From a virus (taxonomy: Duplodnaviria; Caudoviricetes), in the IMG/VR virus record IMGVR_UViG_3300013121_000005, positions 299,485 to 363,484 of that record: 64,000 nucleotides of DNA. One strand, 5' to 3'. Shown here piece after piece: positions 6,647 through 63,408 of this stretch. The notes beneath the pieces were generated by a model. That model did no database searches, had not been told where the DNA came from, and saw only the letters and a program-made list of their open reading frames with translations. The translations under genes and the position numbers were made by a program. Within the stretch, counting starts at the first letter, position 1, and every line of letters starts with the position of its first letter.

Positions 6647-6998
6647 TTTTTTTCATCCTCTTCTTCCTTCTCTCCCTCCTTGAACGAACGAGAAAGACGG
6701 GCTTCAACCTTGGCAAAAACAAAACTGCCAAGATAGAAGGTGGGACTTCTACTTTAAACATGTGACCATGGGGGCTCTTGAGTACCAGGAATGCTTGGTG
6801 CGACTCGTCAACAGGCTTGATCTCAAGGATCTCCCCAGAAAAAGCACGGACTTCCTCGATTTGGCGTGACTCGTAAGCATGAAGGACCTCAAGAAAAAGC
6901 TTGGTCCCGTTAGACTGGCTACTATCGCTCTCGAAGGTGAAAAACTGCATGATGTGCTCTGGGGGTTGCTTGTTCATATTCATATCTTTCTGGTTCAA
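6633..6998 (-). CDS. hypothetical protein
   Basis: ORF in minus-strand run. Confidence 0.5.
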   Translation of the reverse strand: MNQKDMNMNKQPPEHIMQFFTFESDSSQSNGTKLFLEVLHAYESRQIEEVRAFSGEILEIKPVDESHQAFLVLKSPHGHMFKVEVPPSILAVLFLPRLKPVFLVRSRRERRKKRMKKSEEK

Positions 6999-7025
6999 AG
7001 TGACTTAGACAGTTCAAACGCCCCA

Positions 7026-7232
7026 TCAGGACCGGTCACCTTTCTCTGAGGAACCCTTCAGAAGTTTGAATCTCTCCTCGATGGCCTTGTTGGTCTGCCA
7101 GAAGCTCAGGAAGCAACGGTCCTTTTGCTCCTTGGAGTGTTCGGCTTGGCTCTCACCACACGTCGGACACCAGTCATCAGGGGCCTTGGGCTCTTCGGGT
7201 TCAAGGTCGCGGTCGTCATCCCAACGTGGCAT
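7026..7232 (-). CDS. small CxxC protein
   Basis: CPTCG...H...C; coupled to the upstream gene. Confidence 0.6.
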   Translation of the reverse strand: MPRWDDDRDLEPEEPKAPDDWCPTCGESQAEHSKEQKDRCFLSFWQTNKAIEERFKLLKGSSEKGDRS

Positions 7233-7459
7233 CAGCTACTCCTCTGAGAATCCTTCAGAAGTTTGAGCGCATAGGCCAAAATCACGAGGAGAAAAATAGG
7301 CCAAAACACAACAACAAGGACGAACCCTGCACATGCCCCAACCTGCATCGCCTTGCTAGGAAACCTGTCCCTAAACTTCTCGGATGAACGCAAAAGAGCA
7401 ACACAAATACCAGTACTCCATGCGACCCCGACCAAATAAAAGACTACCCAAAGATGCAT
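7232..7459 (-). CDS. small membrane protein
   Basis: Two TM segments; downstream of a class-A promoter motif and GGAG. Confidence 0.6.
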   Translation of the reverse strand: MHLWVVFYLVGVAWSTGICVALLRSSEKFRDRFPSKAMQVGACAGFVLVVVFWPIFLLVILAYALKLLKDSQRSS

Positions 7460-7522
7460 AGACACTCCATTCAACGAACCGACTGAGGTTCTTCAACGCT
7501 TACACCAAGCCCAAGATTCACA

Positions 7523-9466: not shown

Positions 9467-9498
9467 CCCTAAGTTTACACCAAAACGCTCTTTCCCCC

Positions 9499-9684
9499 TT
9501 GACGAGTTTTTGGTTGGGCGTAGATTACCTGAGACTCAGCAACCCCTTGTTGCACACATGTGTGCAAATGCCGCAGGGTCTACATACAATCAGCAAGTAG
9601 GCTACCCCATGCCACGACCACGATCTCCTCCGATGTGAAGAAGGAGACGAGCCCGGAACCCTAAAGTTCCGGGCTTCGTCATTT
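9499..9684 (+). ncRNA. promoter-sRNA/leader-terminator unit A (26-aa sORF ending RPRSPPM)
   Basis: TTGACG-N16-TAGATT, sORF 9558-9638, hairpin GCCCGGAAC/GTTCCGGGC at 9646-9684. Confidence 0.5.
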
Positions 9685-9699
9685 AAAGGGCGAGACCTC

Positions 9700-9834
9700 T
9701 TGACTAGTTTTGGGTTAGGAATAGGATTGCGTGTGCAGCATAGGATTGCTGAGTCTCAGCTTTCCCTTGCTGCACCACATGCTTTGCCCTAGGGGGAGTA
9801 AGCCCGGAACTTTGGGTTCCGGGCTTCGTCATTT
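9700..9834 (+). ncRNA. promoter-sRNA-terminator unit B (paralog of unit A)
   Basis: TTGACT-N16-TAGGAT, hairpin 9733-9775, same terminator sequence at 9800-9834. Confidence 0.5.
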
Positions 9835-9851
9835 AGGGTGTATGTAGCCCT

Positions 9852-10037
9852 ATGTGCCGCTCAGTTAGGGCTGACCAAGTAGTGGTGGGGGCCCGTATCT
9901 ACAGTAAGGATGCATACCACCCTCAAGCCAAATGGTTGAGAGTCACCAACGTTACCACATGCAGGGGATATGTGGTACTCTCAACCCCTGTGTATGATAC
10001 CTGGAAGCATCCCGCTGAAGGGGTGTGCATTGAATGA
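9852..10037 (+). CDS. hypothetical protein
   Basis: ORF after GGTGTA motif. Confidence 0.55.
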   Translation: MCRSVRADQVVVGARIYSKDAYHPQAKWLRVTNVTTCRGYVVLSTPVYDTWKHPAEGVCIE

Positions 10038-10398: not shown

Positions 10399-10399
10399 C

Positions 10400-10801: not shown

Positions 10802-10812
10802 CGTAACCCCTT

Positions 10813-11958: not shown

Positions 11959-12087
11959 CTTCCACCCGTAGCTATCGAAAGAATCTTAGCTACCCCTCAG
12001 AGGAGTTTCGTGTTACTCGGTGTTATAGGTATACTGTACAGCAAAGTACAGAAGGCGTCCACCTTCCTAGTATGAAAGGATGACAAG

Positions 12088-15216: not shown

Positions 15217-15897
15217 TTACTTGTCCCACAACTGGGCATGGGCCGCTTCTAGGGCTTTGTAGAAGGTCTGCTTTTGGGCTCTTGTTTGGGCAGCCGACTT
15301 CAAAGCGACGAAAGCTTGTCTGTAGTTTCCTTCCGCCATTTGCCGATAGTAGGCGTACATGAAGGTCTTACCCGTCTTACGTTTAGGCGGGGTCAAGAGC
15401 AGGCAAGCAGCCTGAAGGGCATCCGCTTGTGCCTGTACTTGCTCAAGAGACTCCACGGGGGGAGCTAGCTTTTGCTCTTTACGGGCATTGGACAGGCGAA
15501 CAAGGTCTGCTGAAGACACCTCACCCACACCTACACCTGCCTTAAGGGCCCTAGAGCGAAGAACTGCCTCATTTCCATTGGCCGCAGACTCAAAAAACAG
15601 GAAGTCCCCTTCCCGCTTAACAAAGACCCCATACCAACGGTTTTGGACTATGTTGCCGCTCCAAGCAATCCGGTCCCCTCCAAACTCCACAGCATCGAAC
15701 AGCATGAGCTGTTCGGTTATGTAGAGGCACCCCCCTCGCCCTTGAGGCAGGAAGTACCGGTCGAACCCCCCAGGCTTTACCGGGTTGATGTCCACGACCG
15801 CAAGCCAATTACGAGCCCGTTCCTTGCAAAGCTCCAACACAGGAGCTTCCAAGAGGGCATCGTTGACATGTCGTAGCTTGTAAACTTCCATGCGCAA
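15217..15897 (-). CDS. hypothetical protein
   Basis: ORF after class-A and GGTGTA motifs. Confidence 0.7.
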   Translation of the reverse strand: MRMEVYKLRHVNDALLEAPVLELCKERARNWLAVVDINPVKPGGFDRYFLPQGRGGCLYITEQLMLFDAVEFGGDRIAWSGNIVQNRWYGVFVKREGDFLFFESAANGNEAVLRSRALKAGVGVGEVSSADLVRLSNARKEQKLAPPVESLEQVQAQADALQAACLLLTPPKRKTGKTFMYAYYRQMAEGNYRQAFVALKSAAQTRAQKQTFYKALEAAHAQLWDK

Positions 15898-15905
15898 CAG
15901 CTTTC

Positions 15906-16001
15906 TACACCAAAACTCCCTTGTTCAACGAACGACCCCGAAAATTCTCAACCTGACCCTTGAAGAAATTTACCCCCCTTCGTTGAAGAGGCTGAGGTGT
16001 A
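15906..16001. promoter_or_regulatory. divergent promoter pair (class-A motif plus GGTGTA on each strand)
   Basis: Minus: TTGAGA..CGTTGA then GGTGTA; plus: TTGAAG..CGTTGA then GGTGTA. Confidence 0.65.
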
Positions 16002-16011
16002 AAAAAGAAGC

Positions 16012-16428
16012 ATGAGCATCGTTCAATACACGGATCTTCGTTCTATTACGAGGGACTCTAACAGATGTCAGACCCTCGTGGGGCTCGATTTCAACGGGGA
16101 TAGGAAAGTGTGGCTGGTATTTGGCCAGTGCCAGATCCAACAGCGTGATGAGCCTGGGCAGCATTACCTGGAAGGCCGCATGCTGGAAGGGGCCACGGAC
16201 TTTGATCATGACAGCCCCTACGCCATCCGGCTCCCCCTCGTCGGCCTGACCTACAAAAATACCAACGGTGAGGTTATCCGGTTCGAGGTGGACCCCGCAG
16301 TCGCGGCTGCACGCAATCAACACGGAGTTCCTCAGAGTGAGATTGAAGCTCAGCTTCGTCAAATTGAGGGTGCTCTTGAAACGTGGCCGCCTTTCTGGCC
16401 CACCCCTAGGGCAATTGGTCCGTTTTGA
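16012..16428 (+). CDS. hypothetical protein
   Basis: ORF after promoter motifs. Confidence 0.7.
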   Translation: MSIVQYTDLRSITRDSNRCQTLVGLDFNGDRKVWLVFGQCQIQQRDEPGQHYLEGRMLEGATDFDHDSPYAIRLPLVGLTYKNTNGEVIRFEVDPAVAAARNQHGVPQSEIEAQLRQIEGALETWPPFWPTPRAIGPF

Positions 16429-16444
16429 GGTGTAGGTAACGAGA

Positions 16445-17026
16445 ATGAACCTACCTCTCATCCAAGCTGCCCTCGAACTGATTCGACTTGAAACCGAAAT
16501 GGGCGAGCACTTGGCTTACCTCCAACAGCAAGGGGGTGAGATTGGACCGCTCCTCAAGGAAGCTCACCTCAAGAAGCGAGAGAAGCTTGCCAACGCCCAC
16601 CAAAAGATGCGGGAGCTTCTCCCTGACCCGAACATACTCCCAGAAGAGCTGCCCATCCAAGCTGCCCTCAAGGACCAAAAACCCATGTCCCCACTGGCAG
16701 TCTTCACCCGCCTGACTCAATTGGGGTTCCTCCCACATATGCATGAAGTCTCACACATGCTGTGGGAAATGGCACAAGCAGGGGAGATCGAATACCTCAA
16801 CCCTGGGCTGTACAAAGCCCACAAACCCAAAAGTCGCTTCCACGACCTCTTCGCCTCCGTCCACCAACCCGGCGACATGCCGAAAACCTTGATCGAACGC
16901 CTGACCGTCGAAGCCCTCGGCTGGCCAAAGGAGTTTGAGCAAGAAATCAAAGACTTCCGCAAGCTCAACACGGAGAGTAGGATCCAAGCGGCTGGGGCCT
17001 TCCTTTTCAATTGGCCAGAGGATTGA
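16445..17026 (+). CDS. hypothetical protein, possible winged-helix
   Basis: Coiled N-terminus; EVSHMLWEMAQAGEIEYLNPGLYK resembles a wHTH wing. Confidence 0.6.
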   Translation: MNLPLIQAALELIRLETEMGEHLAYLQQQGGEIGPLLKEAHLKKREKLANAHQKMRELLPDPNILPEELPIQAALKDQKPMSPLAVFTRLTQLGFLPHMHEVSHMLWEMAQAGEIEYLNPGLYKAHKPKSRFHDLFASVHQPGDMPKTLIERLTVEALGWPKEFEQEIKDFRKLNTESRIQAAGAFLFNWPED

Positions 17027-18468: not shown

Positions 18469-18502
18469 TTGAAGAACCCAAATCTGGTTCGTTGTGTAAA
18501 GC

Positions 18503-18733
18503 ATGAACCAGCGCTTCATCTTCCGAACCAAGGACGGGACCCAGTACCACTTGGTTCAAGCGGGGCTCAATGGCCCCTGGACGGTCATCTACAACCCAGG
18601 GCCCGGAGGACAGAAGAAGTTCCCCTCCCTGAACCAAGCCCTCCATACCCTCGGGGGCATCGTCCAGTGGGATGCCTGGTCCAGAACCTCCAAGGCTACC
18701 CTCCTCGCCCTCAACCACGATAAGGCTATCTAA
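18503..18733 (+). CDS. hypothetical protein
   Basis: ATG 7 nt after a class-A -10 box. Confidence 0.65.
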   Translation: MNQRFIFRTKDGTQYHLVQAGLNGPWTVIYNPGPGGQKKFPSLNQALHTLGGIVQWDAWSRTSKATLLALNHDKAI

Positions 18734-18736
18734 AGG

Positions 18737-19105
18737 ATGACACCCTTCTACAAAACGCTCAACCAAGAGCACCAAGCTGTCCTGCTCACCCAGATGCGAG
18801 CATGGGGGAACGAGGCCATCCGACTCTTCGAGCAAGCACGCCTCCCACAAGGTACCATCCCAGTAGGGGCAGGGGACTTCGACGAGTACACCCTCCCAGG
18901 AGCCCTCCGACAAGAGTTGTGCTCCGCCCTCCGTACCCAACCCTCCCTAGAAGACGTCGAAGCCCAAGTCGCTCGACGCCTCACCCTGTGGGTCTTCAAC
19001 CACAACAGGATGAGACCCAAGGACGTAAACTGGCAACGGAACCCAGATACCTGGAAGCGTGACCTGGCTAAGCTCATGCAAACCCTACGACAGATTCTGA
19101 CTTGA
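18737..19105 (+). CDS. hypothetical protein
   Basis: ORF with AAGGA upstream. Confidence 0.65.
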   Translation: MTPFYKTLNQEHQAVLLTQMRAWGNEAIRLFEQARLPQGTIPVGAGDFDEYTLPGALRQELCSALRTQPSLEDVEAQVARRLTLWVFNHNRMRPKDVNWQRNPDTWKRDLAKLMQTLRQILT

Positions 19106-19471
19106 GAAACCTAGAGGGCCTTCGTTTAGGTAGGAGAGAGAGCCGGGAGAAGAAGACGGGAGACTGAGAAGAAGCCGTGAGAAGAAAGAAGCCGTGAGAA
19201 ACAAGGAAAACCCCGCCCCTTGGGGCCCGGTCCCTCCTTGTTTCCAGTGAGATTGTAATCCTTCTTAGTCCCTCGTAAACCAAACCTACGACCGTCTCAG
19301 AACAGCGTCTTTCAGGAGAGAAAATGAACCCTCTTGGCACGCTATTTGACGCGAACTTTCTAAGGCGAGGGCTGAGGTTGGATTTCCGGTAACGGGCAGG
19401 AGAAACAGTTGATGAAAACCCACTACCCTTTTGGGGTGGGTTGGTGTATAGAGTTTGGAAAGGAGACTGTA

Positions 19472-20242: not shown

Positions 20243-20426
20243 GATCTTGGATCCAAGTCACCTACATTGGGTTTTCGGGGTCGAACTAATTGAAGGGGGT
20301 CCGGGAGGGGCGGTTGAATTAATCGAAGGGGTGTTGTCTTTTTTGGTTGAGAGAACTCGCACCCCTTCGTTGAAGTGGTGTAATCAGGAAGAAACCACGA
20401 AGAAGGTAGGCGATTGACGTAAGCAT

Positions 20427-21440: not shown

Positions 21441-21671
21441 ATGCGAGGGAAAGAAGCTTACTGTCGGTTCTGGTCGGGCATCTTCTATGTTGCTACCTAC
21501 CCTGACCAACAACGCATCTGTTCGAGCAAGAGCTTTCGGCGGGCCACTCGGAAGGCCCGTAACCTTGGGTTCGACGTCCGGGTCTACAAGAGCGAGTATG
21601 GCAAGGCTCCGAGGGACGCGGTTCAAGTCATGGGGGGTTCCTACGTGCTTCCACGGAAGAAAGTTAGTTGA
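21441..21671 (+). CDS. small basic hypothetical protein
   Basis: Stop TGA embedded in the next promoter's -35 box. Confidence 0.5.
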   Translation: MRGKEAYCRFWSGIFYVATYPDQQRICSSKSFRRATRKARNLGFDVRVYKSEYGKAPRDAVQVMGGSYVLPRKKVS

Positions 21672-21700
21672 CAGAGTTTTCCCTTGTTCGTTGAGTGAAT

Positions 21701-21909: not shown

Positions 21910-21956
21910 AACCTACAGGTTCATTGAAGGACCCTTGGGCCCTTCGTTGAAAGAGT

Positions 21957-23894: not shown

Positions 23895-23929
23895 GCACGG
23901 TTGAGAGACCCAAGGCTGATTCGTTGAAG

Positions 23930-24182
23930 TGGTGTAACTAAGACAACCCCCCAAAAGTGGGGACCTAACATTGCGCGAAACCCCTCTATTGAATATTAGA
24001 GGCAGCCAAAAACCTCCAGCCTAATGGAAAGAGGGTAGTATGGATTAGATGACGCGGGTGGCCCCCGCTTGTGCAGGGAGGTTACGCTTCCCCTCCCCTC
24101 CGCGTAAATAGTAGTGAGATTAATGTTTTGGGCCCTTGTTTCCCCTTGCTTTTAAGAAAGGGGAAACAAGGGCTTCTTTTTT
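23930..24182 (+). ncRNA. candidate structured ncRNA between promoter and terminator
   Basis: Class-A promoter 23901-23927; hairpins CCTCTA/TAGAGG and ACGCGG/CCGCGT; 16-bp terminator 24132-24182; no ORF. Confidence 0.5.
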
Positions 24183-24218
24183 AGCTTGAAGAACCTCGGG
24201 TCTGTTCGTTGAAAGAAC

Positions 24219-24567: not shown

Positions 24568-25556
24568 ATGAGAATGACAATTCGTAAGGGTATCGTGCAG
24601 TACTGGTCCGTGTACAACCAGGTCTGGGAAACGTGCCCTGCGCACAGTGTTCCGGACCGTGAACTGGCTGCGATGCCCGACCGGGACCGAGCCCGAGTGT
24701 TGCGAGCGAGCTTGAAGTACGGATGCGGGTGTGAGGACCCTGCCGCCTAAGAATTAATCATTCTTGGGGTTGAATCTTCCGCTTTTGGACGTTTAGCTAC
24801 TATGAATACCCCCAGCCACATGGACCTTGTTCAAAGCTACATGCTTCAGAATTTCAAGGGGCAGCCCTGTGTGGTCTTTTTCGATCCCCTCGGGGATGGG
24901 AGCCGAGTTGAGGAGATCGGGAAGCTTCTGAAGCTTCCCAAGTCGAAGTGGAACACCCTAGTGAACGCGGACATCTACATCCATCCGTGGAAGAACATGA
25001 TAGTGAACGCGGACGATAAGGGTAGTCCTCTCTCCAACTTCGTGAACCGTTTGGGTCAGGAGACCTATGGGTTCGTGATGGCTTGGAGTGGGTGGTCCTT
25101 CGTCACTGAGAACTCGTAGGAAGGTCATGAACGTCAAGCGCATCGAAGTTCTTACGAATAGGGCCGGAACCGACCTGCTGTACCTTGAGCTGGAGGCAGA
25201 CACTCCCTTTCCAGGTACGACGTACACCCCTTACGCAAGGGTTGAGACCAATGCGGGGTACGGTCATACTTGGGCCCAGAAGAGCTTTCCCGGGGTCGAG
25301 GTTGTGGTCATCGACACGAAGACCGGGGCTCGTACGGTCATCAAAGGAGTCCAAAATGAGTCGTAGTACAGACCCCCGTGAGGCGGCGGAGTCGGCCCTT
25401 GCTCAATGGAGGGAGTCAAAGAAGAACAAGGATACGGCCCGGGCCCGTATGTTCCGACGGACCCTTCAAGCGTGGATCCAAAATGGGGGGGCTCGTCCCG
25501 AAGGATTGACCCCTCGTGAGCTGTCCGCCCTGGGCTTCGTCAAGGACTCCCAGTAA
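24568..25556 (+). CDS. run of four small hypothetical genes (24568-24750, 24802-25119, 25127-25366, 25356-25556)
   Basis: Contiguous ORFs with RBS or class-A promoter. Confidence 0.6.
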
Positions 25557-25692: not shown

Positions 25693-26911
25693 ATGGAAGT
25701 CGTAAACCCTGGAGACAAGAGCTGGGCCCGACATCGCTACCTCCTGACCTTTGGGGTGATAGGCCCAAAGGTCCTTCTGGTCTGGGCAAACTCGTTGGAG
25801 GATGCTCTTGACGAAGCCGTGGATTGGCTCGCAGAGCATGCTCCTGGGCTGCTTTGCGATGAAGAGGTCCGGGAGGCTTACCAGAATGCCCTTGCGCGGG
25901 GCCTCTCTGAGGAGGATGCCCAAACCGAGGCAACGATGGACACTACCCAAGCAGGAAACGAGGGTCACTACCTGCACTCCTGGGAGTGGACCCTGGTGGA
26001 AGACCCTTCCCGAAGTCAAATCAAGAACTGCGCCTGATTGAAGGGGTCCTACTCTAGTCGTTTAGTGAACATGGACTACGCGGCCAATCTTGCTCTGTTT
26101 TTGGTAGACCGGGTTGGAACTGTGTACGGGACCTGGGAAGGCAGGCTTTCCTCTCAAACTCAACGGGGCTTGTTTGGTCGCGTTCTTGGGCGAGGGCAAA
26201 TTCGAGTTTCAGGAGACACCGAAGTGGTGTCTCACACCCGAAAGGTGTGTTTTGGGACGGACTGGGTTGAGGATCTTTACCGGTTTTCGGATTTCAGAGG
26301 GTGACCATGCCAACAGTGACTATTTTTCCGATTTACATCTGTCGGATCAACACGGATGAGTACAACATGGCAGACCATAGCTTTTGGTCTACCGAAGAGG
26401 CAGCCAAAGCAGCTAGCAAGGGAGTTTCTTGGTACGGAGCAGACGGAACGGTGGTGAAGGGCCTCGCAGTTTGCGTGGACGGCAGTCACTACCTGATCTC
26501 CAAGAAGATCGACCTTGATGAGCGAGAAGCCATGCGTCTCCTACAACTCCAGGCCAGCGCCAGGGCCAAGTTGACCCCCGAGGAACGTGCGGCCGTTGGG
26601 CTGGACTAACACAGGAAGAAGTCATGTCCAAGCGTGTAGTAGTTCTGGCACTGAAGTGCTATTTCGATAAGGATAGCTGGCGGACGTACGGTCCTCGCCT
26701 AGTGGAGCGCCAATTTGAGTCCTTGAGCGAGGCAACTGCATTCGCTGAGGAGCAACGGGCACCTCAAATGGCCGTCATCCTGCGCCCCAGCTACAACGAG
26801 GTAGACGACAAGGGAGACTACTTCCGGGAATGGCGTAGTTTCGATGGGTCTCCCCTTAAGGAGACCCGTTGGCCAGTTGCGTCGTCAGAGATGCTTCCGA
26901 GAGACGGATGA
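25693..26911 (+). CDS. run of four small hypothetical genes (25693-26037, 26071-26304, 26301-26609, 26624-26911)
   Basis: Contiguous ORFs; 26071 start defined by the promoter motif. Confidence 0.6.
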
Positions 26912-27213
26912 TGGGCTTTGTGGAAGACATCCTATTCGCGGCCACCTACTACAGCACAAAGGTCAGGCTGCATGACCTGAGCCAACAAGGGGTTGTTTTT
27001 CGGCATGCTTTGGTTGGGTTGCCTGGCCTGAAGGAGTACATCCTGCCCTTCGACCAAGAACGAGTAGATGTCATGGAGCGGGTCATGCACCTGGATACCA
27101 TTCTTGGGTATGACCTCGATGGTGTTTGCGGGCAGGCAATTCAAAAAGCATACCAAGAGAGTTCCCTGAAACCTGGGCATGCTTTTCAGTCCTGGATAAG
27201 ATTTTTCAGTTGA
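26908..27213 (+). CDS. hypothetical protein, EDILYA paralog family
   Basis: EDILFAATYYS...GQAIQKAY is similar to the 27865 and 28138 genes. Confidence 0.6.
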   Translation: MMGFVEDILFAATYYSTKVRLHDLSQQGVVFRHALVGLPGLKEYILPFDQERVDVMERVMHLDTILGYDLDGVCGQAIQKAYQESSLKPGHAFQSWIRFFS

Positions 27214-27246
27214 GGGAAGTGGGGGTCATTTCGTTGAAAGAATACA

Positions 27247-28348: not shown

Positions 28349-28888
28349 ATGACTCTCCTAGAGGGAGTACTGGATGCGGCGGCGGCAGCGGAGCTGCGCG
28401 TTCGGTCCTATTCGGGCCGAGGCATGTATGGGGAGACGTGCCTCGGGATCGTGACGGATAATGTCGCGAAGACCCTGCTTACCCTGGCAAGCTGCCTTCC
28501 CGATGGGATGCTAGCCGACTTGGCCGAAGAGACCGTCTGCACGGATTCCATGGGGCGGAACGCCATTGTGTATTGGCCCAACCTACCCTACAAGGGTGAC
28601 GACGAGGGTTGAATGAATCAGGTAGACCCATTTTCACTGGATGCCCTTGAAGCAAGGGAGCTTCTCAGCAAGAACGGGATCCCGTTTTTGTCCGTAACTC
28701 CCTACGAGTGTTCGGACAACTGCGGCCCTGGGCCCAGGTTCATCGTACGTGGGCTTGCTTCGAGTACTGTCCGCAAAAATAGGCAAGGAAGAATCTACCC
28801 CCTCTGCTTCAACCTCTCAGAGTTGAAGGATTTCGTGAGGAAGCACTACAAGAAGTACTACCTCACGAAAAAGCACCCCTCTGGTTGA
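28349..28888 (+). CDS. two small hypothetical genes (28349-28612, 28613-28888)
   Basis: First has RSYSGRGMYGETC...DSMG motif. Confidence 0.6.
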
Positions 28889-28917
28889 AAGCTAACCCCT
28901 TTCTTCGTTGAGAGAGT

Positions 28918-29154: not shown

Positions 29155-29207
29155 CCCCAATGGGGGTTTTTTGGTTGAAAGCTAAGCGCTCTCTTCGTTG
29201 AGAGAGC

Positions 29208-29332: not shown

Positions 29333-30168
29333 ATGGCTCGCCTTACCACTAAGCAGTACAACTTCAACGGGCTTGCTGGGTGTGTGACCCAGAAGAAGGC
29401 CCGTCGGACGGGCACCCTCGTGGGGGTCTACAACAGCGAGCAATCCGAGGTCGGGGATGTCGGAGACCCCCTAACGGCTTGGATGACCGTCTGCGAGGAG
29501 CATGGAATGCTTGTGGGCCATTCGAGCCTCAAGCTCGCTCTCTCTCACTCGTCGGACCCTGAGGGGTGGTGTGAGGATTGTCGAGCCAGGAACAACTGGT
29601 ACGTCCTTGACAATGGGACGGAAGCGTTCTCCTTCAACGACTTCTTCAAGAACGAGAACCTTCCCGTTCTTGTCCGGACCGTAAGGTCAGAGGAAGTCAC
29701 TGAGGATGACATGGAAGGTGTCCGTGACTTGGAGGTGGGAGAGTCCCTAAAGGTCGGGATTGGAGGGACTGAGTTCACGATCACGAGGGTTCCTACAAGC
29801 CGTCCTCTGATTTTCGGTTGAAAAGCCTAAACTCTCTTCGTTGAGAAAGTACAGACATGCCCGCCCGAAAGAACAAGCCTGGGAAGTTCGGATCGACTCC
29901 CAAGTCACTGTCGTACAGCGCTCCGTTTCGAGAGTTCATAGCAAATAAGGTGCTCCAAGAGCGGATGGCAGACATCAAGGCTACTCTGGCCCTTGCGCTC
30001 CTAGCGCAGGAGAGTCAACGTCCTGGCGAGGCCCACTACGTGGGGTGGCCGCAGATGGCTGACGCTCTCTTCTTGGAGAAGCTCGGCTACCTCCAGGAGT
30101 CTAGGGCTGCAAAAGGATGCTTCCATGTGACCGAGAAGTTCAAGGAGTGGGTGACCCCCTCTACGTGA
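29333..30168 (+). CDS. two hypothetical genes (29333-29821, 29857-30168)
   Basis: ORFs with codon bias; promoter between them. Confidence 0.6.
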
Positions 30169-31914: not shown

Positions 31915-32654
31915 GACCCGCCTCCTTCCTACCTCTTTTCAACGAAAGAACCAGGAAGCCTTCAAGCAAAAGCCTTTCGATTTATTGCCCCACAAGGTCA
32001 AGGGGCGCGAATTACGCCTCATCACAAGGGAAGCTTTCGAGGAATTTCTCAGCTTGCATACGTTGATACTCACGTAATGCTGCGTCTCTCCTAGCTGGCC
32101 CTGTCTTACCGTGCCCGACCACCTCCTTCCCTTGTTCAGGCGGGTCTTGCTTGCGATGTACCAGGAAAGTGCTGCATTGGCCGTGAGCTGGGTCGGACCC
32201 GTGGACGTAGCCAACCCATGTGGCCACAATGTGCGTTACGCTACGACAGTCACACCCCGGCACACGGCAAGGTCGTGGCTGTCTGCTGTCCTCGCTGCGC
32301 GGCCTACCAATGTCAGCAGTATACCTGTGCGTCGAGAGGTGGTGCCCGCAGTTGACGCACACTTTTCTTCCCATCATCCCACCTCCTTGTCGAGCTGGCG
32401 GGTACGTGCATCACTCAAGGGGTTCAACATCAGACTGCTTCAGCCCCCTCACCAGACCCACTACGGCCCCAACAACCAACATCGCGACGTGGGGGATGTT
32501 CTCAGGCGAACGTAGCAAGAACACAGCACAACCAAAAGTCATCCGCAACCCCCCGAAGACGTAGAGACCCAAAAAGAAATTCAACACAACTTCCCCCAAG
32601 AAACTACATGTGGTTCGTTTGCAGTTTCATGTACCCAGCTAGAGTTTCCCAAGG

Positions 32655-38106: not shown

Positions 38107-38619
38107 TTACTCTCGGGTAGTGCCAAGGGACTCAGGGCTCAAGATAGACAGGGGACGGCCAGCCGCATCAATGATGCCAGCTTTCTGGCCTTCCTTCACG
38201 AGTGTTTTAAGGTAGCTCCTACGCTTTGAGGCGGGGAGGTCACCAAAACGATAGTAAGAATGTTCTATTTCGAGGCCATAGTCCTCGTTGCCCTTGTACC
38301 AAGACCTGGCGGAAGCCCCAATGTGACGCATGAGGGCGTACTCCCACCCAAGGAAGCTTACCTCATCTGCGAGGTATGGCTTATCGTTCGTGGCGAAGAT
38401 GTGCCCCATCTCATGGATCACATCATACCATCGAACCTCCCCACAATAGAGGATTCTCCGAGTAGGCCAAGCGATCCCGATAAGGAGGTTTGTGAACGGC
38501 GCCCTAAAAAAGGAATCGAAGATGGAGCCCTTTTGGTTCCATGCCGTCTCGTTGACCTTTACGATGTCCCCACCCCATGCGCGAGCAATGGACTGAAGCT
38601 TTCTCAACTCTGGGCCCAT
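38107..38619 (-). CDS. HExxH protein (likely leaderless)
   Basis: VIHEMGH; ATG 6 nt after CGTTTA. Confidence 0.65.
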   Translation of the reverse strand: MGPELRKLQSIARAWGGDIVKVNETAWNQKGSIFDSFFRAPFTNLLIGIAWPTRRILYCGEVRWYDVIHEMGHIFATNDKPYLADEVSFLGWEYALMRHIGASARSWYKGNEDYGLEIEHSYYRFGDLPASKRRSYLKTLVKEGQKAGIIDAAGRPLSILSPESLGTTRE

Positions 38620-38662
38620 AGGCTTTAAACGAAGAAGGGGGTTTCTTTCAACCCCCTTTCTT

Positions 38663-40279
38663 TCACTCGTTCTCGTTGGCCCAGTCGACATCTTCAGGCG
38701 CGACGGGAATGTTCGCTTCGATGGCGAACTGGATGAGGGTCTTGAGGGGATCCTCTCCCGGGGACGTGTATTTGGAGATCCAGGCGATGAGCCGGAGCCC
38801 ATCTACTGTTGCTTCCCGGAAGAGGTTCCGGTCAGCCCCTGCCTGAAAAAAGTCCGTGGGATCCTGCCATCGGTTGTGCTTCTTGACGTTCTCCTCGTAT
38901 TGGCGGAGAGCCTCCTGGTACTCCCTCTTTGTGGCGAAGTCCTTCTGCACGGGGCTTACGGGGGGAGGGGGTTTCTCAGCGCGCTCTTCCTGCTTGTATC
39001 CGTAAAGCGTCCGAAGGCATCGAAATTCATCGTTGGTTAGTGTGACAGCCCCCGAGGTATGCCCACCCAAAAGACGGGTCAGTGCAGACGCCAGAGGCGT
39101 CGTAACGACGCTACCTTGGTGGGACTTAGGTCGATTCATGCTTGCTTAACGAAGAAGGAGGAGTTCTTTCAACCAGAACCTTAGTGGCGACTAAGAATAG
39201 ACCCGTCCCACTTGTATACCTCCGTCAGGAACTTCTGGTTCAAGTCCGTATAGCGTTCGTCTAACGTTTCCAAAGAAGGGACTGGGTGAATGTAGACCGA
39301 AGTGTGGGTTTGGTAGACCGGATCTACTGTCAGGTTGAACTCCCTAACCGCGAAGTCTCTCACTTCAGGGTTGAGCGTGGGGTTGAGAATGACCACGCAG
39401 GGTGAGCCTTTGTAGTAAGCTTTCAGGTAAACCAGGGCGAGGTCTGGCAGGTCCACCAAGGACCTTGGAGCTTCGGTTTTCGGGAGATCGTTCTGAATCT
39501 CCCGGTAGAGCACATCCTTCTGTACCGTAAAACGGTTGGTAACCGTTCTGTAGTTACCGTCAGGTTGACGCAGGTAGTACTCGATCCTTTTCCCGTAGAC
39601 TTTGGGGTCCTTCCAAGAGCCGGAATGGGGATCGTCCTCTTTGAGAAAACTATGGATGTAGGCCCTGCGATGGAGTTCCTCGCAGAATGTGTCGTAGGCT
39701 TGGTCTACAGCTTGGCAACCCAATCCTTCCGTCGTGAAGTACTGGGTTCGGGTCTGGCCGTCTGTAGTGATGTCCACACGCCAGGACTCAATTTGAACGG
39801 TATGTGTGTCGTTAGGCATGAGAGTCTCTTCAGGGGTTCCCATTCGGCAAAGTAAACCAGGTCCGTAGGGGAGAGAAAGCGGAGTGTCCTACCTTGGACT
39901 CCCATTCAGCAAAGCAGGTTTTGACTTGATCGGGTAGGATGCGGTCTACATCATCCTTTTTGAATCGGGCGTTGAGCGTGTCTGAGGCCGTCATTTGGCC
40001 TACATAGACATACCCCATTTGAAAAAAGGTATCCCAGTGCTCCTGTAGCCGACATGTGTTCTCGGTGAAGTAGTGCCAGCTTCCATCATGAAGCTGGCAA
40101 ATCCCCAAGATGGAATTCTCTAGCCGAAACGCATAGATGATTGGTTTTCTACAACGGGAGCAGATGTCTCCGGGCCCGTACACGTAGCATTCATGCCAGG
40201 GGGTGATTGCTGCCTGGCAGCAATCCGAGAGAGGCATGACCACATCCACCCAAGGTAAATCGCTAGATTGACTTGTCAT
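38663..40279 (-). CDS. three hypothetical genes (38663-39139, 39181-39843, 39830-40279)
   Basis: Contiguous minus-strand ORFs. Confidence 0.65.
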
Positions 40280-52401: not shown

Positions 52402-52506
52402 TTTCTCCTCTTTTACAAGCCCTAAACGAACATAGACCTGACCTCTCAACCAGAAAAAATCACACGAGGGGGGTTAAAGGATTGGACCCCCCTTCGTTGA
52501 AAGACC

Positions 52507-54206: not shown

Positions 54207-54251
54207 ATGTAAGGGGGTTGAGCCTGTCAGGCTCTTTTCGTTAAGGCTGAT

Positions 54252-56093: not shown

Positions 56094-56597
56094 ATGCCCA
56101 TTGTTTACTTGAAAGGTGATGCGACCGCACCTCAAGGGAAAGGGCCTAAAATCATTGCACATATAGCTAATGACCAGGGCGGTTGGGGGGCTGGCTTCGT
56201 TTTGGCTATTTCCAAGCGTTGGGCTTACCCCGAGCAAATGTACCGCCAGTGGTACCGCCAGCGGGACCCCATCAACAACCCGGAACCCATCGTGATGACC
56301 TCGGGAAGGTTTCAGCTAGGGGAGACCCAGCTCGTCATGGTCGCCAGCGGGCTCGCTGTAGCTAACATGGTCTCCCAGGCAGGGATGCGAACCAGCTCGA
56401 AGGGGCCGCCCATCCGGTACGACTCCCTCCAGGTTTGCCTTGAGAAAGTAAGGGATTACGCGGACTCCTTCAAGGCGAGCGTCCACATGCCAAGAATCGG
56501 GACTGGGCTTGCTCAGGGAGACTGGCGTGTCATCGAGCCAATCATCCAGAAGGCGTTGTCCGACATCGACACCTACGTCTACGACTTTTCTGGTTGA
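56094..56597 (+). CDS. macrodomain protein (Poa1p/TARG-like)
   Basis: KGDAT..IIAHIAND.GGWGAGF...HMPRIGTGLAQGDW. Confidence 0.85.
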   Translation: MPIVYLKGDATAPQGKGPKIIAHIANDQGGWGAGFVLAISKRWAYPEQMYRQWYRQRDPINNPEPIVMTSGRFQLGETQLVMVASGLAVANMVSQAGMRTSSKGPPIRYDSLQVCLEKVRDYADSFKASVHMPRIGTGLAQGDWRVIEPIIQKALSDIDTYVYDFSG

Positions 56598-56626
56598 AGA
56601 ACGGGGGTCGGCCCCGTTGAAGGAGC

Positions 56627-57294
56627 ATGATGAACACGAATTGGCGTGAGGAAGAGAAGAAGGGGCTTCAAGCGAAGCTCAAGACCGATACGTACACGGT
56701 GAACGGCGTCCTCTGTTGGACGTCCTGCCGTCACCAGGAGGACCGTCCGGTCCCGATGCACGTCTTCGCGGACGCCGACGTGGAGCCCCCGCCCGGCCAG
56801 AAGGCTGCGTGCGAGGCCCACACGAGTGCTTTCCTTGCGGCCTACCGCAAGGCGATGGAGAACCACGTTCCCTCCGAGGAGGAGATGTTCGAGATGCGAG
56901 GGGCCTTCGGTCCTGGCGCCACGGTCGTCAACGTCGTTACCGGCAAGGAGATCAAGCTGTGACCAACTACAACGTGAAGCCCGAGGGGCTCAGCAAGACC
57001 GGGACGAAGGCGTACGAGGTCATCATGTCCGTGCTCAAGAAGCACGACGCGACCTACACGGGGGGGTGCAAGTCCTTCTACAGCCCCGCCGAGTGGAAGG
57101 GACGTGGCGAGGAGTTCGGGCTCGACGCCGAGCTGATCGTCGTTTATGACGGGGGGAGCTTGCCTCCCTATTTCAGCCTCGATCACAGCTACCCTCACTA
57201 CACTCAGTACGAGATCATGCGTCAAGCGCTTGAAGCCGAGGGCCTGTACTTCGAGGAGTGTACTGGTTGGTACGCTGCAATCTATAAGCTCTAA
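56627..57294 (+). CDS. two hypothetical genes (56627-56962, 56959-57294)
   Basis: Promoter-defined start; GTGA overlap. Confidence 0.65.
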
Positions 57295-57303
57295 AGGAAT
57301 CCT

Positions 57304-59568: not shown

Positions 59569-59662
59569 GGGGTACCACCTTTCTCAAGTTGGCTAATAGG
59601 AAGAAAGTGGTGTATCTACCTGGAGCGGGTCCTCTATCTTGCCGGTGCCCAGAGATGAAACC

Positions 59663-60192: not shown

Positions 60193-60215
60193 CCGTAAGG
60201 AATTTACCGAGAATC

Positions 60216-60539
60216 ATGAGTACCTACACTGACCAGACTCTAACCTGCAAGGACTGCCAAGCCCCTTTCACTTTCACTGCCCGAGACCAGGAATTCTTTG
60301 CCCTACAAGGGTATACGCCTCCCAAGCGTTGTAAGCCCTGTAGGCAAGCGTTCAAAGCCAGGATTGGTTCGCCGTCGCAGGCCCCTTCTTCGGGCTTCAA
60401 CTCAAGCAACGGTTATTCCACAGGGGGCACCAACAGTTACCCTTCAGGAGATCGAAATGGAGGGGGTGGGGGTCGTCGTCAGGGTGGTGGGGGGAAGCGT
60501 CGTCGAGACCGAGACAGTTTCGGTAACTACGATGATTGA
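60216..60539 (+). CDS. zinc-ribbon protein with Gly/Arg-rich tail
   Basis: D.TLTCKDC..F.FT..DQEFF...G...PKRCKPCR. Confidence 0.8.
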   Translation: MSTYTDQTLTCKDCQAPFTFTARDQEFFALQGYTPPKRCKPCRQAFKARIGSPSQAPSSGFNSSNGYSTGGTNSYPSGDRNGGGGGRRQGGGGKRRRDRDSFGNYDD

Positions 60540-60640
60540 GATGTGACGTCCCAGCGGGGTTCGTCCTAGAAAGGGGGCTAAGGTTACACTTAGCTCCCTT
60601 TTTTAGTTGAAAGGTTAGCCCTCCTTTCGTTGAAAGTAAC

Positions 60641-60877
60641 ATGGAACAGAACATGAAGACCGATCTCCAGCTCGTTGAGGAAGCGTTCGAGGCAGTTAAG
60701 ACGGTCGTCGAGCGCTGGGAGAAGGCGGGGGTCCAAACCATCGCCTTGCCGCAGTCCCTCGTCCAGCTCTTTCCCGTCGCAGACTTCCTCCTGTCTGCCA
60801 GGGAGCGGCTGAAGGACCCTCACACTCAGGGGACCCTTCAAGCTTATTATGAGAGAGCCTCGAAGGGTACCAAGTGA
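60641..60877 (+). CDS. hypothetical protein
   Basis: ATG 7 nt after CGTTGA. Confidence 0.65.
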   Translation: MEQNMKTDLQLVEEAFEAVKTVVERWEKAGVQTIALPQSLVQLFPVADFLLSARERLKDPHTQGTLQAYYERASKGTK

Positions 60878-60894
60878 ACGGGGTATAGGTTCCC

Positions 60895-63045
60895 ATGGAA
60901 CGTTTCAACTTCGACTGGAAGCAGTACAAGGGCAACCTCACATGGCTTCCCGAGCGAACCATCTACCTCACGCGCCACGGGAGCCACGCTTACGGGACGA
61001 ACCTTCCGTCGAGTGACCTCGACCTCCGTGGGGTCGCCATCGCACCAGCAGCTTACTACCACGGGTTCCTCCAGACCTTCGACCAGGCTGTCCAGAAGGA
61101 GCCGGATCTCACCATCTTCGAGATCCGGAAGTTCCTCGGGCTGGCGGCGGACTGCAACCCGAACGTCCTGGAGATCCTCTACACGGACCCGAGCGACCAT
61201 TTGCTCGTCACCCCGTTGGCCGAGAAGCTCTTCGAGCACCGAGACGAGTTCCTGTCGCAGAAGGCCAAGCACACCTTCAGCGGGTATGCGACGAGCCAGC
61301 TCAAGCGGATCAACCTCCACTACCGTTGGCTCAAGAATCCCCCGACCGGCGCCCCCTCTAGGGCAGACTTCGGTCTGCCCGAACGGACGGTTATCCCAGG
61401 GGATCAGCTTGCAGCAGCAGAAGCTGCCATTCGTAAGCAGCTTGACGAGTGGTCCTGGCACGAGCTGGAAGGGGTCGACCCCTCGGTCCGTCAGGCCGTC
61501 AAAGACGAGTTCTTCCGTCGTCTCACGGAGATCACCCAGTGGTCTTGGGACCAGATGGACGAGAAGGTCTGGCTTTCCGCAGCCCGGACCCTCGGCTACG
61601 ACACTAACTTCATTGAGTTGCTCGATATGGAGCGCCGGTACACGGCCCGTCTCCGGGAGTGGCAGCAGTACAACGACTGGAAGAAGAACCGGAACCCGGA
61701 CCGTGCCAAGCTCGAAGAGCAGTTTGGGTACGACTGCTACCTCGACGACACGGAGTTCCTCACAGCTCAAGGGTGGAAGCGGTACGATGAGATCCCCGAA
61801 GGGCTCGCTCTCGCGACCTTGAATCAGAAGACTGGGACCATCGAATACCAGGAAGCGACGGAACGGGTCAGCAAGCAGTACAACGGCCCCATCTGCTTCT
61901 TCGAGACGCAGGATACGGCTTGCGCCGTGACGCCGAACCACCGGATGTGGGTGTCCGATGTTCGTGGTGGGCGGGCCAACACAAACGGGACGACGTACAA
62001 CGAGGCTAAAGCAGACTGGAAAATCCTCTCGGCTGAGAAGATGTTGGCTGGACGGCGGTACAGTTACCACTGCCGGACGGCCAGTGAAGGATCGGTGCTC
62101 ACGAAGGACGAGCACACACTCATCATGGTGGGGGCCTACGTTTCAGAAGGATGTGTCGGTCATCGCCTCAAAGACGGAACCCCCTCGGTTTTGCGGTTTT
62201 CGCAGAAGGTGGGAGGGCGACAAGAACCCTACCTCGAACGCATCCTCTCGGAACGAAGGGATACCCGGAAGTTCACTGACCCTCGGAAAAAGAAGGGTCG
62301 GAAGACGCCGATCACCGAGAACGTTTACACGGTCGCGAACCGTGAACTCGCTAAGTCCATCGTTCGGGACTGTGGAGAGGGCTCCAAATCGAAACGGCTC
62401 CCCCCTTGGGTACGGACTTTGAAGCAGGAATCCGCTCGTTTCCTGCTCGACGTACTCGTGTCTGGTGATGGGACGAACCGTAAGTTCAGCCGAATCTACT
62501 ACACGTCCTCGAAGACCCTCGCGGACGACGTGCAGGCCCTCGCGGTCCTCGCCGGGTTCACCTCGATGGTCTGGGGGCCGTACGAGGACGACCGAAACCC
62601 CAACCTTTCGATGTACCACGTCTACATTGGCAAGAGCGCCTTCAGCCGGGTCATCACGAAGGGCAAGGACTCGCACGTCAAGGTCGAGAATGTCACGGGC
62701 CGACGCATCGTGTGCTTCACGGTCCCAAACGAAATGCTCATCACCCGCCGCAACGGGAAGGTCGCCATCCAGGGCAACACGAAGCACGGGATGCACCTCG
62801 TGAGGCTCCTCCGCATGTGCCGAGAAATTCTCACCCATGGGCTGGTTTTCGTACGCAGACCCGACTTTCAGGAACTCCTAGCCATTCGGCATGGGGCCTG
62901 GAACTACTACGATCTGGTCACGTGGGCAGAGAAGCAGGACGCAGAGCTGACGGAGCTGGCTAAGGCTTCTAAGCTACCCAAGCAACCAAACCGCCACAAG
63001 CTTGACCGGCTTTGTATCGAACTAGTCGAGGAATCTTTCAAATGA
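60895..63045 (+). CDS. Pol-beta-superfamily nucleotidyltransferase (RlaP/YcgL-type) interrupted by an intein
   Basis: HGSHAYG...SDLDLRG, NPNVLE; exteins join as GYD|TKHGMHLVRL. Confidence 0.85.
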   Translation: MERFNFDWKQYKGNLTWLPERTIYLTRHGSHAYGTNLPSSDLDLRGVAIAPAAYYHGFLQTFDQAVQKEPDLTIFEIRKFLGLAADCNPNVLEILYTDPSDHLLVTPLAEKLFEHRDEFLSQKAKHTFSGYATSQLKRINLHYRWLKNPPTGAPSRADFGLPERTVIPGDQLAAAEAAIRKQLDEWSWHELEGVDPSVRQAVKDEFFRRLTEITQWSWDQMDEKVWLSAARTLGYDTNFIELLDMERRYTARLREWQQYNDWKKNRNPDRAKLEEQFGYDCYLDDTEFLTAQGWKRYDEIPEGLALATLNQKTGTIEYQEATERVSKQYNGPICFFETQDTACAVTPNHRMWVSDVRGGRANTNGTTYNEAKADWKILSAEKMLAGRRYSYHCRTASEGSVLTKDEHTLIMVGAYVSEGCVGHRLKDGTPSVLRFSQKVGGRQEPYLERILSERRDTRKFTDPRKKKGRKTPITENVYTVANRELAKSIVRDCGEGSKSKRLPPWVRTLKQESARFLLDVLVSGDGTNRKFSRIYYTSSKTLADDVQALAVLAGFTSMVWGPYEDDRNPNLSMYHVYIGKSAFSRVITKGKDSHVKVENVTGRRIVCFTVPNEMLITRRNGKVAIQGNTKHGMHLVRLLRMCREILTHGLVFVRRPDFQELLAIRHGAWNYYDLVTWAEKQDAELTELAKASKLPKQPNRHKLDRLCIELVEESFK
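61735..62778 (+). mobile_element. intein with LAGLIDADG-type homing endonuclease (348 aa)
   Basis: Starts CYLDDTEFLT; block B VTPNHRMW; MVGAYVSEG and LDVLVSGDG; ends IQGN followed by Thr. Confidence 0.88.
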
Positions 63046-63332
63046 AGGACTTGACCATGTTCGACCCTGCGGGGGAGCCTTACCCAGTTACACTCCAAGA
63101 TATCCCCTTCGGGGTGTTGTTCACTATGTTGAACTACAAGGGTAACTTCATGAGGGTGAAGTGCTTGACCAAAAACTTGGGGGTCGTCCGCCCTTATCGT
63201 GCGGGGGGTCCAGATCCTGTCCCTTTCAATGATGATGGGTTCCATGTTCCCATTGTTGAGCTGGCTACTGGGAACGTCCTCTGGATGTCCAAAAGGAAGC
63301 CCTGTAGAGCGCAAGAAACGTTTTGTTCTTGA
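63042..63332 (+). CDS. hypothetical protein
   Basis: ATGA overlap with the nucleotidyltransferase. Confidence 0.55.
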   Translation: MKDLTMFDPAGEPYPVTLQDIPFGVLFTMLNYKGNFMRVKCLTKNLGVVRPYRAGGPDPVPFNDDGFHVPIVELATGNVLWMSKRKPCRAQETFCS

Positions 63333-63408
63333 AAGCCCGATGCCCTTGCCTCTGTCAAGATTTGACTTGAGAAACTTCTTGGTTGTTCGTTTAGGTAAGG
63401 AAGAAAGG

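Follow-up and report, generated by a model that had tools for sequence, protein, structure and literature searches.

A two-box promoter-like motif predicted to set transcription starts on start codons, and a candidate phage sigma-like reader, in a clade of uncultured huge phages

The stretch of DNA analyzed here, hereafter the window, is the final 64 kb (contig positions 299,485-363,484) of G000, a phage contig of 363,484 bp from IMG/VR with a CheckV completeness of 76%. With a GC content of ~54%, the window is dense in small open reading frames (ORFs) without assigned function, and the few larger genes that match Pfam encode VWA, RNB, PcfJ-like, and RlaP-like proteins; it holds no tRNA gene and no Rfam family at gathering score. 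A two-box motif, TTGA(A/G)N-N15-CGTT(G/T/A)A, which we call class A, recurs throughout this stretch and is often followed after 6 or 7 nt by an ATG. Here we describe class A as a putative promoter whose transcripts would frequently begin on the start codon itself, together with a phage-encoded, sigma-like protein that may read it. Genes of G000 were modeled with a crude codon-usage caller.

The exact pattern TTGARN-N15-CGTTDA has 26 matches in the window, whereas 100 dinucleotide shuffles gave 0.08 on average and never more than 1. The whole contig has 40 matches, and its backwards-read control gave 0. Spacing between the boxes is rigid, as TTGA-N17-CGTT was found 61 times vs. 12-24 times for each of N13-16 and N18-20. 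The logo consensus of the G000 sites is ttttGGTTGAAGg-N11-cTTCGTTGAg, and the position weight matrix (PWM) for it, applied at a threshold of ≥14 bits, returned 54 sites in G000 and 1 in the reversed genome used as a control. When spacers of 14-16 nt were allowed, 69 sites were found vs. 11 in the control, 42 of them within the window; the class A total in the contig is about 55-60. An earlier note on this DNA had counted about 30 recurrences and suggested a motif run over the whole genome; the count was a fair one, and the PWM scan extends it to the contig. Three regions concentrate the sites: the window, the initial 35 kb of the contig, and contig 232-292 kb. The orientation of the sites matches the gene-strand blocks (+ at 16-31 kb, - at 32-43 kb, and + at 44-64 kb of the window), which agrees with the co-orientation of motif and downstream gene reported previously. 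Divergent pairs are few; the back-to-back pairs at 15925-15986 and 52423-52500 have -35 boxes only 8 and 24 nt apart.

The hexamer that would occupy -12 to -7 is CGTTNA, not the housekeeping TAnnnT. Sigma70-type sites were not enriched at 20-40 kb of the window (8 vs. 7.8 expected), and TTGACA-N17/18-TAnnnT stood at chance level in G000 (2 vs. 2). The conserved triplets, GAA/GAG-N16-CGT in G000, have the spacing typical of promoters read by extracytoplasmic function (ECF) sigma factors. The likeness to ECF promoters proposed in the earlier note thus stands in part: the CGT core of the -10 box and the ~16-nt triplet spacing agree with it, but the AAC motif, the hallmark of the ECF -35 element, is absent, the -35 consensus being GGTTGA(A/G), GGTGAGATC or GGTATAGAA. 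Judged from its sequence properties, class A behaves as a bipartite promoter distinct from the housekeeping TTGACA/TATAAT type. Two other accounts of its structure were rejected. A GAAG/CTTC inverted repeat was considered as an RNA hairpin, but by eye its bases do not co-vary and are merely conserved sequence; the two boxes were also considered as direct repeats for a tandem helix-turn-helix (HTH) protein, but by hand count the repeat spacing varies from 23 to 28 bp among phages. GC-rich palindromes overlap some class A promoters (window 38635-38658, -; contig 232633-232676), and at one palindrome-overlapped site the -10 box lies within the loop of a 9-bp hairpin. These palindromes might terminate convergent units or act as regulatory hairpins.

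We then considered what follows the box. At positions +6/+7 after the box, the 54 PWM sites of G000 carry 25 ATG, 2 GTG, and 1 TTG codons, where ~1.7 ATG would be expected by chance; ORFs of at least 40 aa are opened by 24 of 27 such ATGs, with a median length of 86 aa. A Shine-Dalgarno (SD) core (GGAG, GAGG, or AGGA at -18 to -4) was found at 1 of 25 of these leaderless-type starts, compared with 253 of 384 other genes (under permissive start choice) and 14.7% of internal ATGs, in line with the earlier statement that the layout leaves no room for an SD sequence. The base at -1 is a pyrimidine at 25 of the 27 leaderless-type sites vs. 52% of SD-led starts, and a pyrimidine at -1 followed by a purine at +1 is the usual start preference of bacterial RNA polymerase. 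With CGTTNA placed at -12 to -7, +1 is expected to fall on the A of the ATG. On this geometry, transcription very probably starts on that A, the seventh base after the box, and we infer that such transcripts are translated as leaderless mRNAs.

Within the window, 19 class A sites have leaderless-type ORFs of at least 35 aa, ~11 have SD-led leaders, and the remainder precede non-coding RNAs or have very short leaders. All 18 start codons listed in the earlier note were verified, with the ATG 6 nt after the box at 14 sites and 7 nt after it at 18503, 54252, 60641, and 43364. On the plus strand, the 6-nt layout joins 21924-21950 to ATG 21957 (76 aa), 24186-24212 to ATG 24219 (110 aa), 26038-26064 to ATG 26071 (77 aa), 28885-28911 to ATG 28918 (78 aa), 44076-44102 to ATG 44109 (63 aa), and 56594-56620 to ATG 56627 (111 aa). 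The same layout is seen at 24770-24795 (ATG 24802, 105 aa), where a 14-nt spacer (TTGAAT...CGTTTA) was missed by the strict pattern; at 29175-29201 (ATG 29208, 40 aa), directly 3' of a hairpin and T-run; at 52474-52500 (ATG 52507, 125 aa), with TTAAAG as its -35 box; and at 45171-45197 (ATG 45204, 52 aa), a site of weak score absent from the earlier list. Minus-strand counterparts are 39146-39172 (ATG 39139, 158 aa), 41136-41162 (ATG 41129, 106 aa), 41846-41872 (ATG 41839, 86 aa), 42118-42144 (ATG 42111, 80 aa), and 38626-38651 (ATG 38619, 170 aa), the last again with a 14-nt spacer missed by the strict pattern. The 7-nt layout is found at 18469-18495 (+; box CGTTGT; ATG 18503, 76 aa), 54218-54244 (+; ATG 54252, a 405-aa PcfJ-like protein), 60607-60633 (+; ATG 60641, 78 aa), which follows a strong hairpin and T-run and has an RlaP-like gene (60895-63045) downstream, and 43372-43398 (-; ATG 43364, 134 aa). 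As a side observation, the mechanical ORF at 38107-38802 (-), which has 231 aa from a start at 38802, contains the class A promoter of ATG 38619 internally, pointing to the 170-aa protein instead; the longer ORF is probably over-extended.

Other class A sites in the window have leaders. Very short ones are predicted at 27210-27237 (+), where a 16-nt spacer is followed after 9 nt by ATG 27247 (~3-nt leader), and at 29818-29844 (+), where ATG 29857 follows after 12 nt (~6-nt leader; 103 aa); at 7471-7496 (-), with a 14-nt spacer, ATG 7459 comes after 11 nt. SD-led leaders follow the sites at 6681-6707 (-; purine-rich; GTG 6646, 190 aa), 31939-31965 (-; ATG 31914, 85 aa), 45942-45968 (+; short; ATG 45987), and 52423-52449 (-; ATG 52401, 89 aa), the last divergent from 52474-52500, and purine-rich leaders follow 19102-19128 (+) and 63367-63393 (+). 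A second box, GGTGTA, is present at several sites. It lies in the leader of 15925-15951 (-), which stands back to back with 15960-15986 (+); the latter is followed by GGTGTA at 15996-16001 and, 10 nt after that, by ATG 16012. A weaker, class A-like site at 43767-43793 (+), with the box CGTCCA, is likewise followed by GGTGTA and then by ATG 43830.

Non-coding units also lie behind class A. The promoter at 42879-42905 (-), which has GGTGTA within its spacer, precedes no ORF but a structured 158-nt RNA (42715-42872, -; minimum free energy (MFE) -70.5 kcal/mol, z -5.9), whose closing stem of 26 bp has its first base precisely at the predicted +1, 42872, the seventh base after the box, as the previously claimed start of a non-coding RNA 6 nt after the box would have it. 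Three internal hairpins accompany this terminal stem, and an Rfam search of window 42600-42960 gave no family at E ≤1. ARAGORN identified 47 tRNAs and no tmRNA on the contig, and no clue to the host was obtained from the tRNA set; class A sites at contig 23292, 24718, 27844, 35310, and 37768 (+) stand directly before tRNA genes of this 47-tRNA array. The unit at 21668-21694 (+; -35 box TTGACA) most likely drives a non-coding RNA as well, because an ORF read from its predicted start, 21701, would end after 2 codons. At two places GGTGTA follows 3 nt downstream of class A: at 20347-20373 with 20377-20382 (+), where no long plus-strand ORF follows, and at 23901-23927 with 23931-23936 (+), where the sequence is non-coding until a terminator-like, strong hairpin with a T-run at ~24130-24180. 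These tandem units are probably non-coding RNA genes expressed from two promoter classes. Since class A precedes tRNA genes and a structured RNA in addition to ORFs, the promoter does not require an ATG, which is present when the product is a protein.

Next, we asked whether the layout is shared by related phages. A megablast search with 20 kb against GenBank phages gave no match, and the exact motif GGTTGAAG-N13-TTCGTTGA returned 12 single-site stretches in viral contigs and at least 120 in metagenome contigs, with no convincing second site among the matches listed, so no close relative was obtained in this way. We used the eight IMG/VR loci that carry a homologue of the sigma-like protein described below, followed by the greater part of five of these genomes (G001-G005). 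They belong to a clade of huge phages of roughly 230-510 kb, in which G003 has 512 kb and G001 is complete with terminal repeats. A quick pattern look at the contigs of L013-L015, 13-19 kb of sequence, showed no class A-like sites, a stretch too short to weigh. An unbiased fixed-gap scan for any hexamer over-represented at a constant distance before an ORF-opening ATG recovered two promoter-like classes, A and B, in each of the six phages. As the six are kin, site counts are not independent events, and the comparison of orthologues is the strongest comparative argument.

In every phage, class A consists of a CGT/GT box at a gap of 6-7 nt from the ATG and a -35 partner, with ~20-60 sites per genome and with box sequences specific to the phage. 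The consensus is ggTTGAAAg..aCGTTGTAg-N4-ATG in G001, GGTTGAaTCC..CCTC.sGTGTTCt..cATG in G002, ggTGAGATCc..CTCAaaCGTAaTAcTGAgCATG in G003 (box CGTAaTA), tGGTTGAGATC..CCTCaTACGTAGgATAGAtCATG in G004 (also written GGTTGAGATC..CGTAGgATAG), and ggTATAGAa..gcgCGTTc..AGGaCATG in G005 (box CGTTc/a). The -10 core is thus CGTT in G000, G001, and G005, CGTA in G003 and G004, and GTGTT in G002. Across the six phages we counted 126 leaderless-type sites with the ATG 12-13 nt from the start of the CGT box; 118 of these ATGs open ORFs of at least 40 codons, and 121 are preceded by a pyrimidine at -1 vs. 52% of SD-led starts (p ~5e-28). SD cores numbered 0-5 per relative at such sites, except in G004, whose box itself contains AGGA at SD-like spacing. 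Sixteen cross-phage orthologous pairs, with nearly equal protein lengths, are leaderless-type in both members; the alignment starts ≤10 residues from both N-termini in 14 of the 16, and the start offset is ≤4 residues in 13. Five of these pairs involve window genes, namely those at 26071 (orthologue in G005), 28918 (G001, 47% identity), 41839 (G002), 43364 (G005, 61%), and 44109 (G001, 63%). Because orthologues keep the layout while the boxes change with the phage, the change is concerted, pointing to one altered trans-acting reader.

Class B, cGGTGTAg at a gap of 9-10 nt before the ATG, is identical in the six phages; its window examples are the plus-strand boxes at 15996-16001, 20377-20382, and 23931-23936 given above. 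The six-phage comparison revealed no -35 element for it, and in G000 no clear pyrimidine preference at -1 was seen by eye. Its transcripts may carry leaders of a few nucleotides.

The earlier note had suggested searching the genome for a sigma factor, and a phage sigma-like protein was indeed found outside the window, encoded by a 379-aa ORF at contig 15,713-16,852 (L009:1456-2595, +). Its N-terminus matches Sigma70_r2 (E 5.7e-4) and TIGR02937 (sigma70-ECF; E 0.003), both below curated cut-offs. In an AlphaFold2 (AF2) model with a mean predicted local distance difference test (pLDDT) score of 67.6, residues ~2-60 and 274-302 together align to sigma2 domains (SigH, SigC, SigK, AlgU, SigW, and others), which account for the majority of the top 50 VIA rows at Z 6-8, a root-mean-square deviation of 2.1-3.9 Å, and 70-88 residues, where a Z below 8 can be generic. 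The T4 gp55 complex 7d7d is also among the fold matches. Foldseek with the whole model gave nothing at E ≤0.001; the sigma2 matches came from domain-wise alignment. Residues 109-204 align to the HNH domain of ZRANB3 (Z 8.0; profile E 6.5e-6), so that in the model a sigma region 2-like fold is interrupted by an HNH-like domain, which is part of an insertion of ~200 residues. The catalytic DH position of this HNH-like zinc domain reads AE, and the domain looks inactivated. At the C-terminus, residues 282-377 give weak matches to SigM-type and LuxR/FixJ-type HTHs, and hhalign sets this HTH on region 4.2 of a bona fide ECF sigma without significance. An alignment of eight homologues with 31-47% identity showed an invariant 26-residue stretch resembling regions 2.3/2.4 and a variable C-terminal HTH. 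An alignment query over IMG/VR found the family in the same eight loci only, PHROG gave no match to it, and a pattern scan of genome contigs gave no bacterial homologue.

The surroundings of the sigma-like gene suggest how it is expressed. In each of the 8 phages the gene is preceded, at a distance of 94-138 nt, by TTGAC(A/G)-N18-TA, against a background of 0.013 per 200 nt (L009:1339-1368 and matching places in L012, L013, L014, L016, L017, L018, and L019). Because this host-type promoter is kept in all eight and is elsewhere at chance, the gene looks immediate-early and transcribed by the host holoenzyme. Between it and the gene, G000, G001, and G002 have a class A promoter with an SD-led leader, and G005 has a degenerate class A copy before the gene. 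Most ECF sigmas autoregulate (PMC5758882), and class A ahead of the sigma-like gene is the arrangement expected for an autoregulated ECF sigma. The two-domain protein fits the two-box class A better than class B, because the latter lacks a -35 element. The conserved CGT core and variable -35 box of class A would also parallel the invariant region 2 and variable HTH of the protein.

Other candidate transcription factors were identified in these genomes. A 204-aa protein (P0001; L010:1363-1977, +; contig 73,108-73,722) has two sigma region-4 HTHs without a region 2; it is conserved in all four phages tested (G000, G001, G003, and G005), and its gene directly follows that of a NusG-flap nuclease in a long replication-module operon. 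Inside the tRNA array, at contig ~30.5 kb, an 89-aa protein (L098:1492-1761, -) combines a Cys-rich, Zn-ribbon-like N-terminus with a C-terminus that closely resembles region 4.2 of primary sigmas, and could be a decoy or helper for -35 recognition. G003 alone encodes two bona fide ECF sigmas and an IF1 homologue (G003:C1:77013-77819, 255604-256104, and 57025-57219). As a common reader of class A these ECF sigmas were rejected, having no counterpart in G000, G001, or G005. A PF00623 search found no multisubunit RNA polymerase, and a PF00940 search for a T7-type polymerase gave no match but was uninformative, as its control was silent too. IF3_C was found in none of four phages.

From these data we propose that class A would be read by the host core RNA polymerase with an ECF-like (sigma2 and sigma4) factor, not the housekeeping sigma. 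CGTTNA at -12 to -7 would set the start 7 nt after the box, which in about half of the units is the A of the ATG; such an mRNA would have no 5' untranslated region (UTR) and no SD, and host ribosomes would load on its 5'-terminal AUG. Behind the remaining class A promoters would lie units with SD-led leaders, the tRNA and Y-RNA arrays, and structured non-coding RNAs. The sigma-like gene would be ignited from the host-type TTGACA-N18-TA promoter, and in G000, G001, and G002 its product would feed back on its own gene via class A. The phage's own 379-aa protein is the likeliest reader of class A, although we regard its identification as an evenly balanced proposition. The full scheme, in which a single immediate-early, ECF-like, HNH-split sigma, expressed from the conserved host-type promoter, runs most of the early and accessory program through a two-box code with +1 on the AUG, a code that drifts jointly at dozens of sites in each genome, those of orthologous genes among them, and frees early expression from housekeeping promoters and SD pairing, is more tentative, and we hold it as possible rather than probable.

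Several points count against the 379-aa protein as reader and against the scheme built on it. In G003 and G004 the place of class A ahead of the sigma-like gene is taken by a GTGTA/GGTATA-like box. The invariant region 2.4 suits the invariant GGTGTA at least as well as the variable flanks of the class A -10 box, and parallels between region 2 and the boxes also track phage phylogeny, hence are not independent evidence. The sigma4 domain of the candidate is weakly detected, its sigma2 match is possibly generic, and the missing AAC counts here too. All statements on transcription starts are geometric or comparative, and leaderless translation would depend on the capacity of the host for it. Finally, class A genes resemble classical early genes, being small, without assigned function, and at contig ends, which favors a factor already present at infection. 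Such a factor might be a host alternative sigma of the ECF type, either already there at infection or induced at that time, that reads class A; the phage HNH-sigma, expressed from class A and host-type promoters, would then read GGTGTA in a classical sigma cascade. We consider this cascade unlikely, albeit a serious contender. The CGT -10 box and ECF-like spacing (PMC5758882) would suit it, as would the early-like class A units, which lie at contig ends or, in the complete G001, near its terminal repeats. It would match the invariance of both GGTGTA and the 2.3/2.4-like stretch, the presence of class A ahead of the sigma-like gene in three phages, which a cascade would predict, and the tandem-sigma4 gene within an operon that may be GGTGTA-led. 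However, both boxes differ among related phages at orthologous genes, so that each phage would have to track a different host sigma, and the -35 box again lacks AAC. The GGTGTA promoters have no -35 element though the phage protein has an HTH, the conserved extra host-type promoter before the sigma gene would be needless were class A host-read, and it would be risky to entrust most early expression to a host sigma that is gated by stress.

A reader of phage origin other than the 379-aa protein seems rather improbable to us. It could be an undetected or virion-delivered sigma, or the tandem-sigma4 or region-4.2-like protein might act as an activator or appropriator on the host holoenzyme, as T4 MotA/AsiA do. 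Suitable proteins exist, namely the 204-aa protein conserved in the four phages tested and the 89-aa Zn-ribbon-like/region-4.2-like protein, and many class A genes encode small proteins without assigned function; yet class A offers no TAnnnT -10 box to a remodeled housekeeping sigma, the tandem-sigma4 gene sits deep in the replication-module operon rather than in an early position, and by eye the sigma-like proteins inspected lack head-loading tag motifs. We give very little credence to the idea that the motif is not a promoter at all but serves as a protein operator, as a site of recombination or cassette shuffling, or as a signal acting within longer RNAs, with the ATG spacing reflecting translational control. 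The rigid 15-nt spacer of variable sequence between two boxes, the strict gene co-orientation, and the pyrimidine at -1 with a purine at +1 all speak for a promoter, as do the tRNA genes and structured RNAs behind the motif, with a 5' stem from the predicted +1. GC-rich palindromes do overlap some sites (e.g., 38635-38658), the purine-rich 6 nt before the ATG could serve as a weak SD in read-through transcripts, and the G004 box contains AGGA at SD-like spacing. However, a systematic upstream hairpin is absent, and no other enriched promoter type would account for expression of the class A units.

The earlier note had envisaged an alternative-sigma regulon translated leaderlessly, perhaps as an escape from shut-off of SD-led translation. 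That picture is supported in part, by the bipartite non-housekeeping promoter, the ATG at the expected +1, a layout kept in six phages, and the presence of a phage sigma-like protein. The suggested purpose is not supported: roughly one in three or four class A promoters has an SD-led leader behind it, that of the sigma gene included, ~2/3 of the other G000 genes have an SD core, and the four phages searched have no IF3 and only G003 has IF1. Nothing here points to a shut-off of SD-led translation; more simply, promoter-proximal genes would lack leaders because leaderless mRNAs are well translated in the host.

These analyses provide a sequence-level regulatory map for uncultured huge phages with a phage G-like capsid, comprising one conserved host-type promoter at the sigma-like gene, a two-box class, and the -10-only GGTGTA class. 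Class A would fix the true starts of dozens of small genes that SD-based callers would misplace, such as that at 38619, and the differing boxes at orthologous genes would be an example from nature of promoters evolving in concert with their reader. Should that reader be the phage sigma, its family supplies ready orthogonal sigma/promoter pairs; if translation is leaderless as proposed, the hosts have to be proficient in translating leaderless mRNAs.

Several known systems bear comparison. T4-type phages have PeSL cassettes, in which a stem-loop is paired with a sigma70 early promoter (PMC2839356, PMC4122927), and the class A units resemble them as small, fast-evolving genes, each with its own copy of one promoter type, in hyperplastic regions. 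We rejected a PeSL-like cassette because the MFE of the upstream 45 nt is -8.0 kcal/mol vs. -9.1 at random, a hairpin with a T-run is found at 2 of 54 sites, and the promoter is not of sigma70 type. Among jumbo phages, AR9 has mapped 5' UTRs of 26-491 nt and no leaderless transcript was detected in phiKZ (PMC8244752, PMC5312081); both have their own promoter codes, as here, but also their own RNA polymerases. Our literature search on leaderless transcripts in jumbo, huge, giant, or mega-phages found only these phiKZ and AR9 transcriptome papers pertinent, and a jumbo-phage review counts the phage G group among those with neither polymerase nor sigma factors (PMC7824862). Leaderless middle and late transcripts have been described for Thermus phage phiYS40 (Sevostyanova et al. 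2007, as cited in PMC3594737), and leaderless genes whose -10 box adjoins the ORF are frequent among Deinococcus-Thermus and mycobacteria (PMC12340547, PMC4633059). The layout predicted here is like theirs, with the -10 box 6-7 nt before the start codon, no SD, a 5' AUG, and many genes sharing the arrangement. However, those systems use the housekeeping TAnnnT and the primary sigma, whereas class A is a CGT box with its own -35 partner, conserved across a huge-phage clade.

The promoters of Bacillus subtilis sigmaW/M/X/V, TGAAAC-N16-CGTA/CGTC (PMC5758882), are the closest in form. Like ECF (group 4) promoters, class A has two short boxes, a CGT -10 core, ~16 nt between the triplets, and a T-rich tract beside the -35 box, and a copy stands before the sigma-like gene in three of the six phages. 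It differs from them in its -35 box without AAC, in its dozens of sites per genome, and in a start fixed on the A of the ATG, and the candidate differs from ECF sigmas by its ~200-residue, HNH-bearing insertion in region 2. Phage sigma cascades are known from SPO1 (gp28 and gp33/34) and T4 (gp55). As in these phages, we propose that a phage sigma expressed from a host-type promoter redirects the host core polymerase and that several promoter classes are in use. Unlike in SPO1 and T4, the sigma2-like fold is split by an HNH-like domain, the target promoters are predicted to give leaderless mRNAs, and the sigma-like gene carries the sole host-type promoter found conserved before a gene across the clade. 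The proposed system thus unites variants of three known kinds of element: a promoter of ECF-like type, leaderless transcripts, and a sigma switch encoded by the phage.

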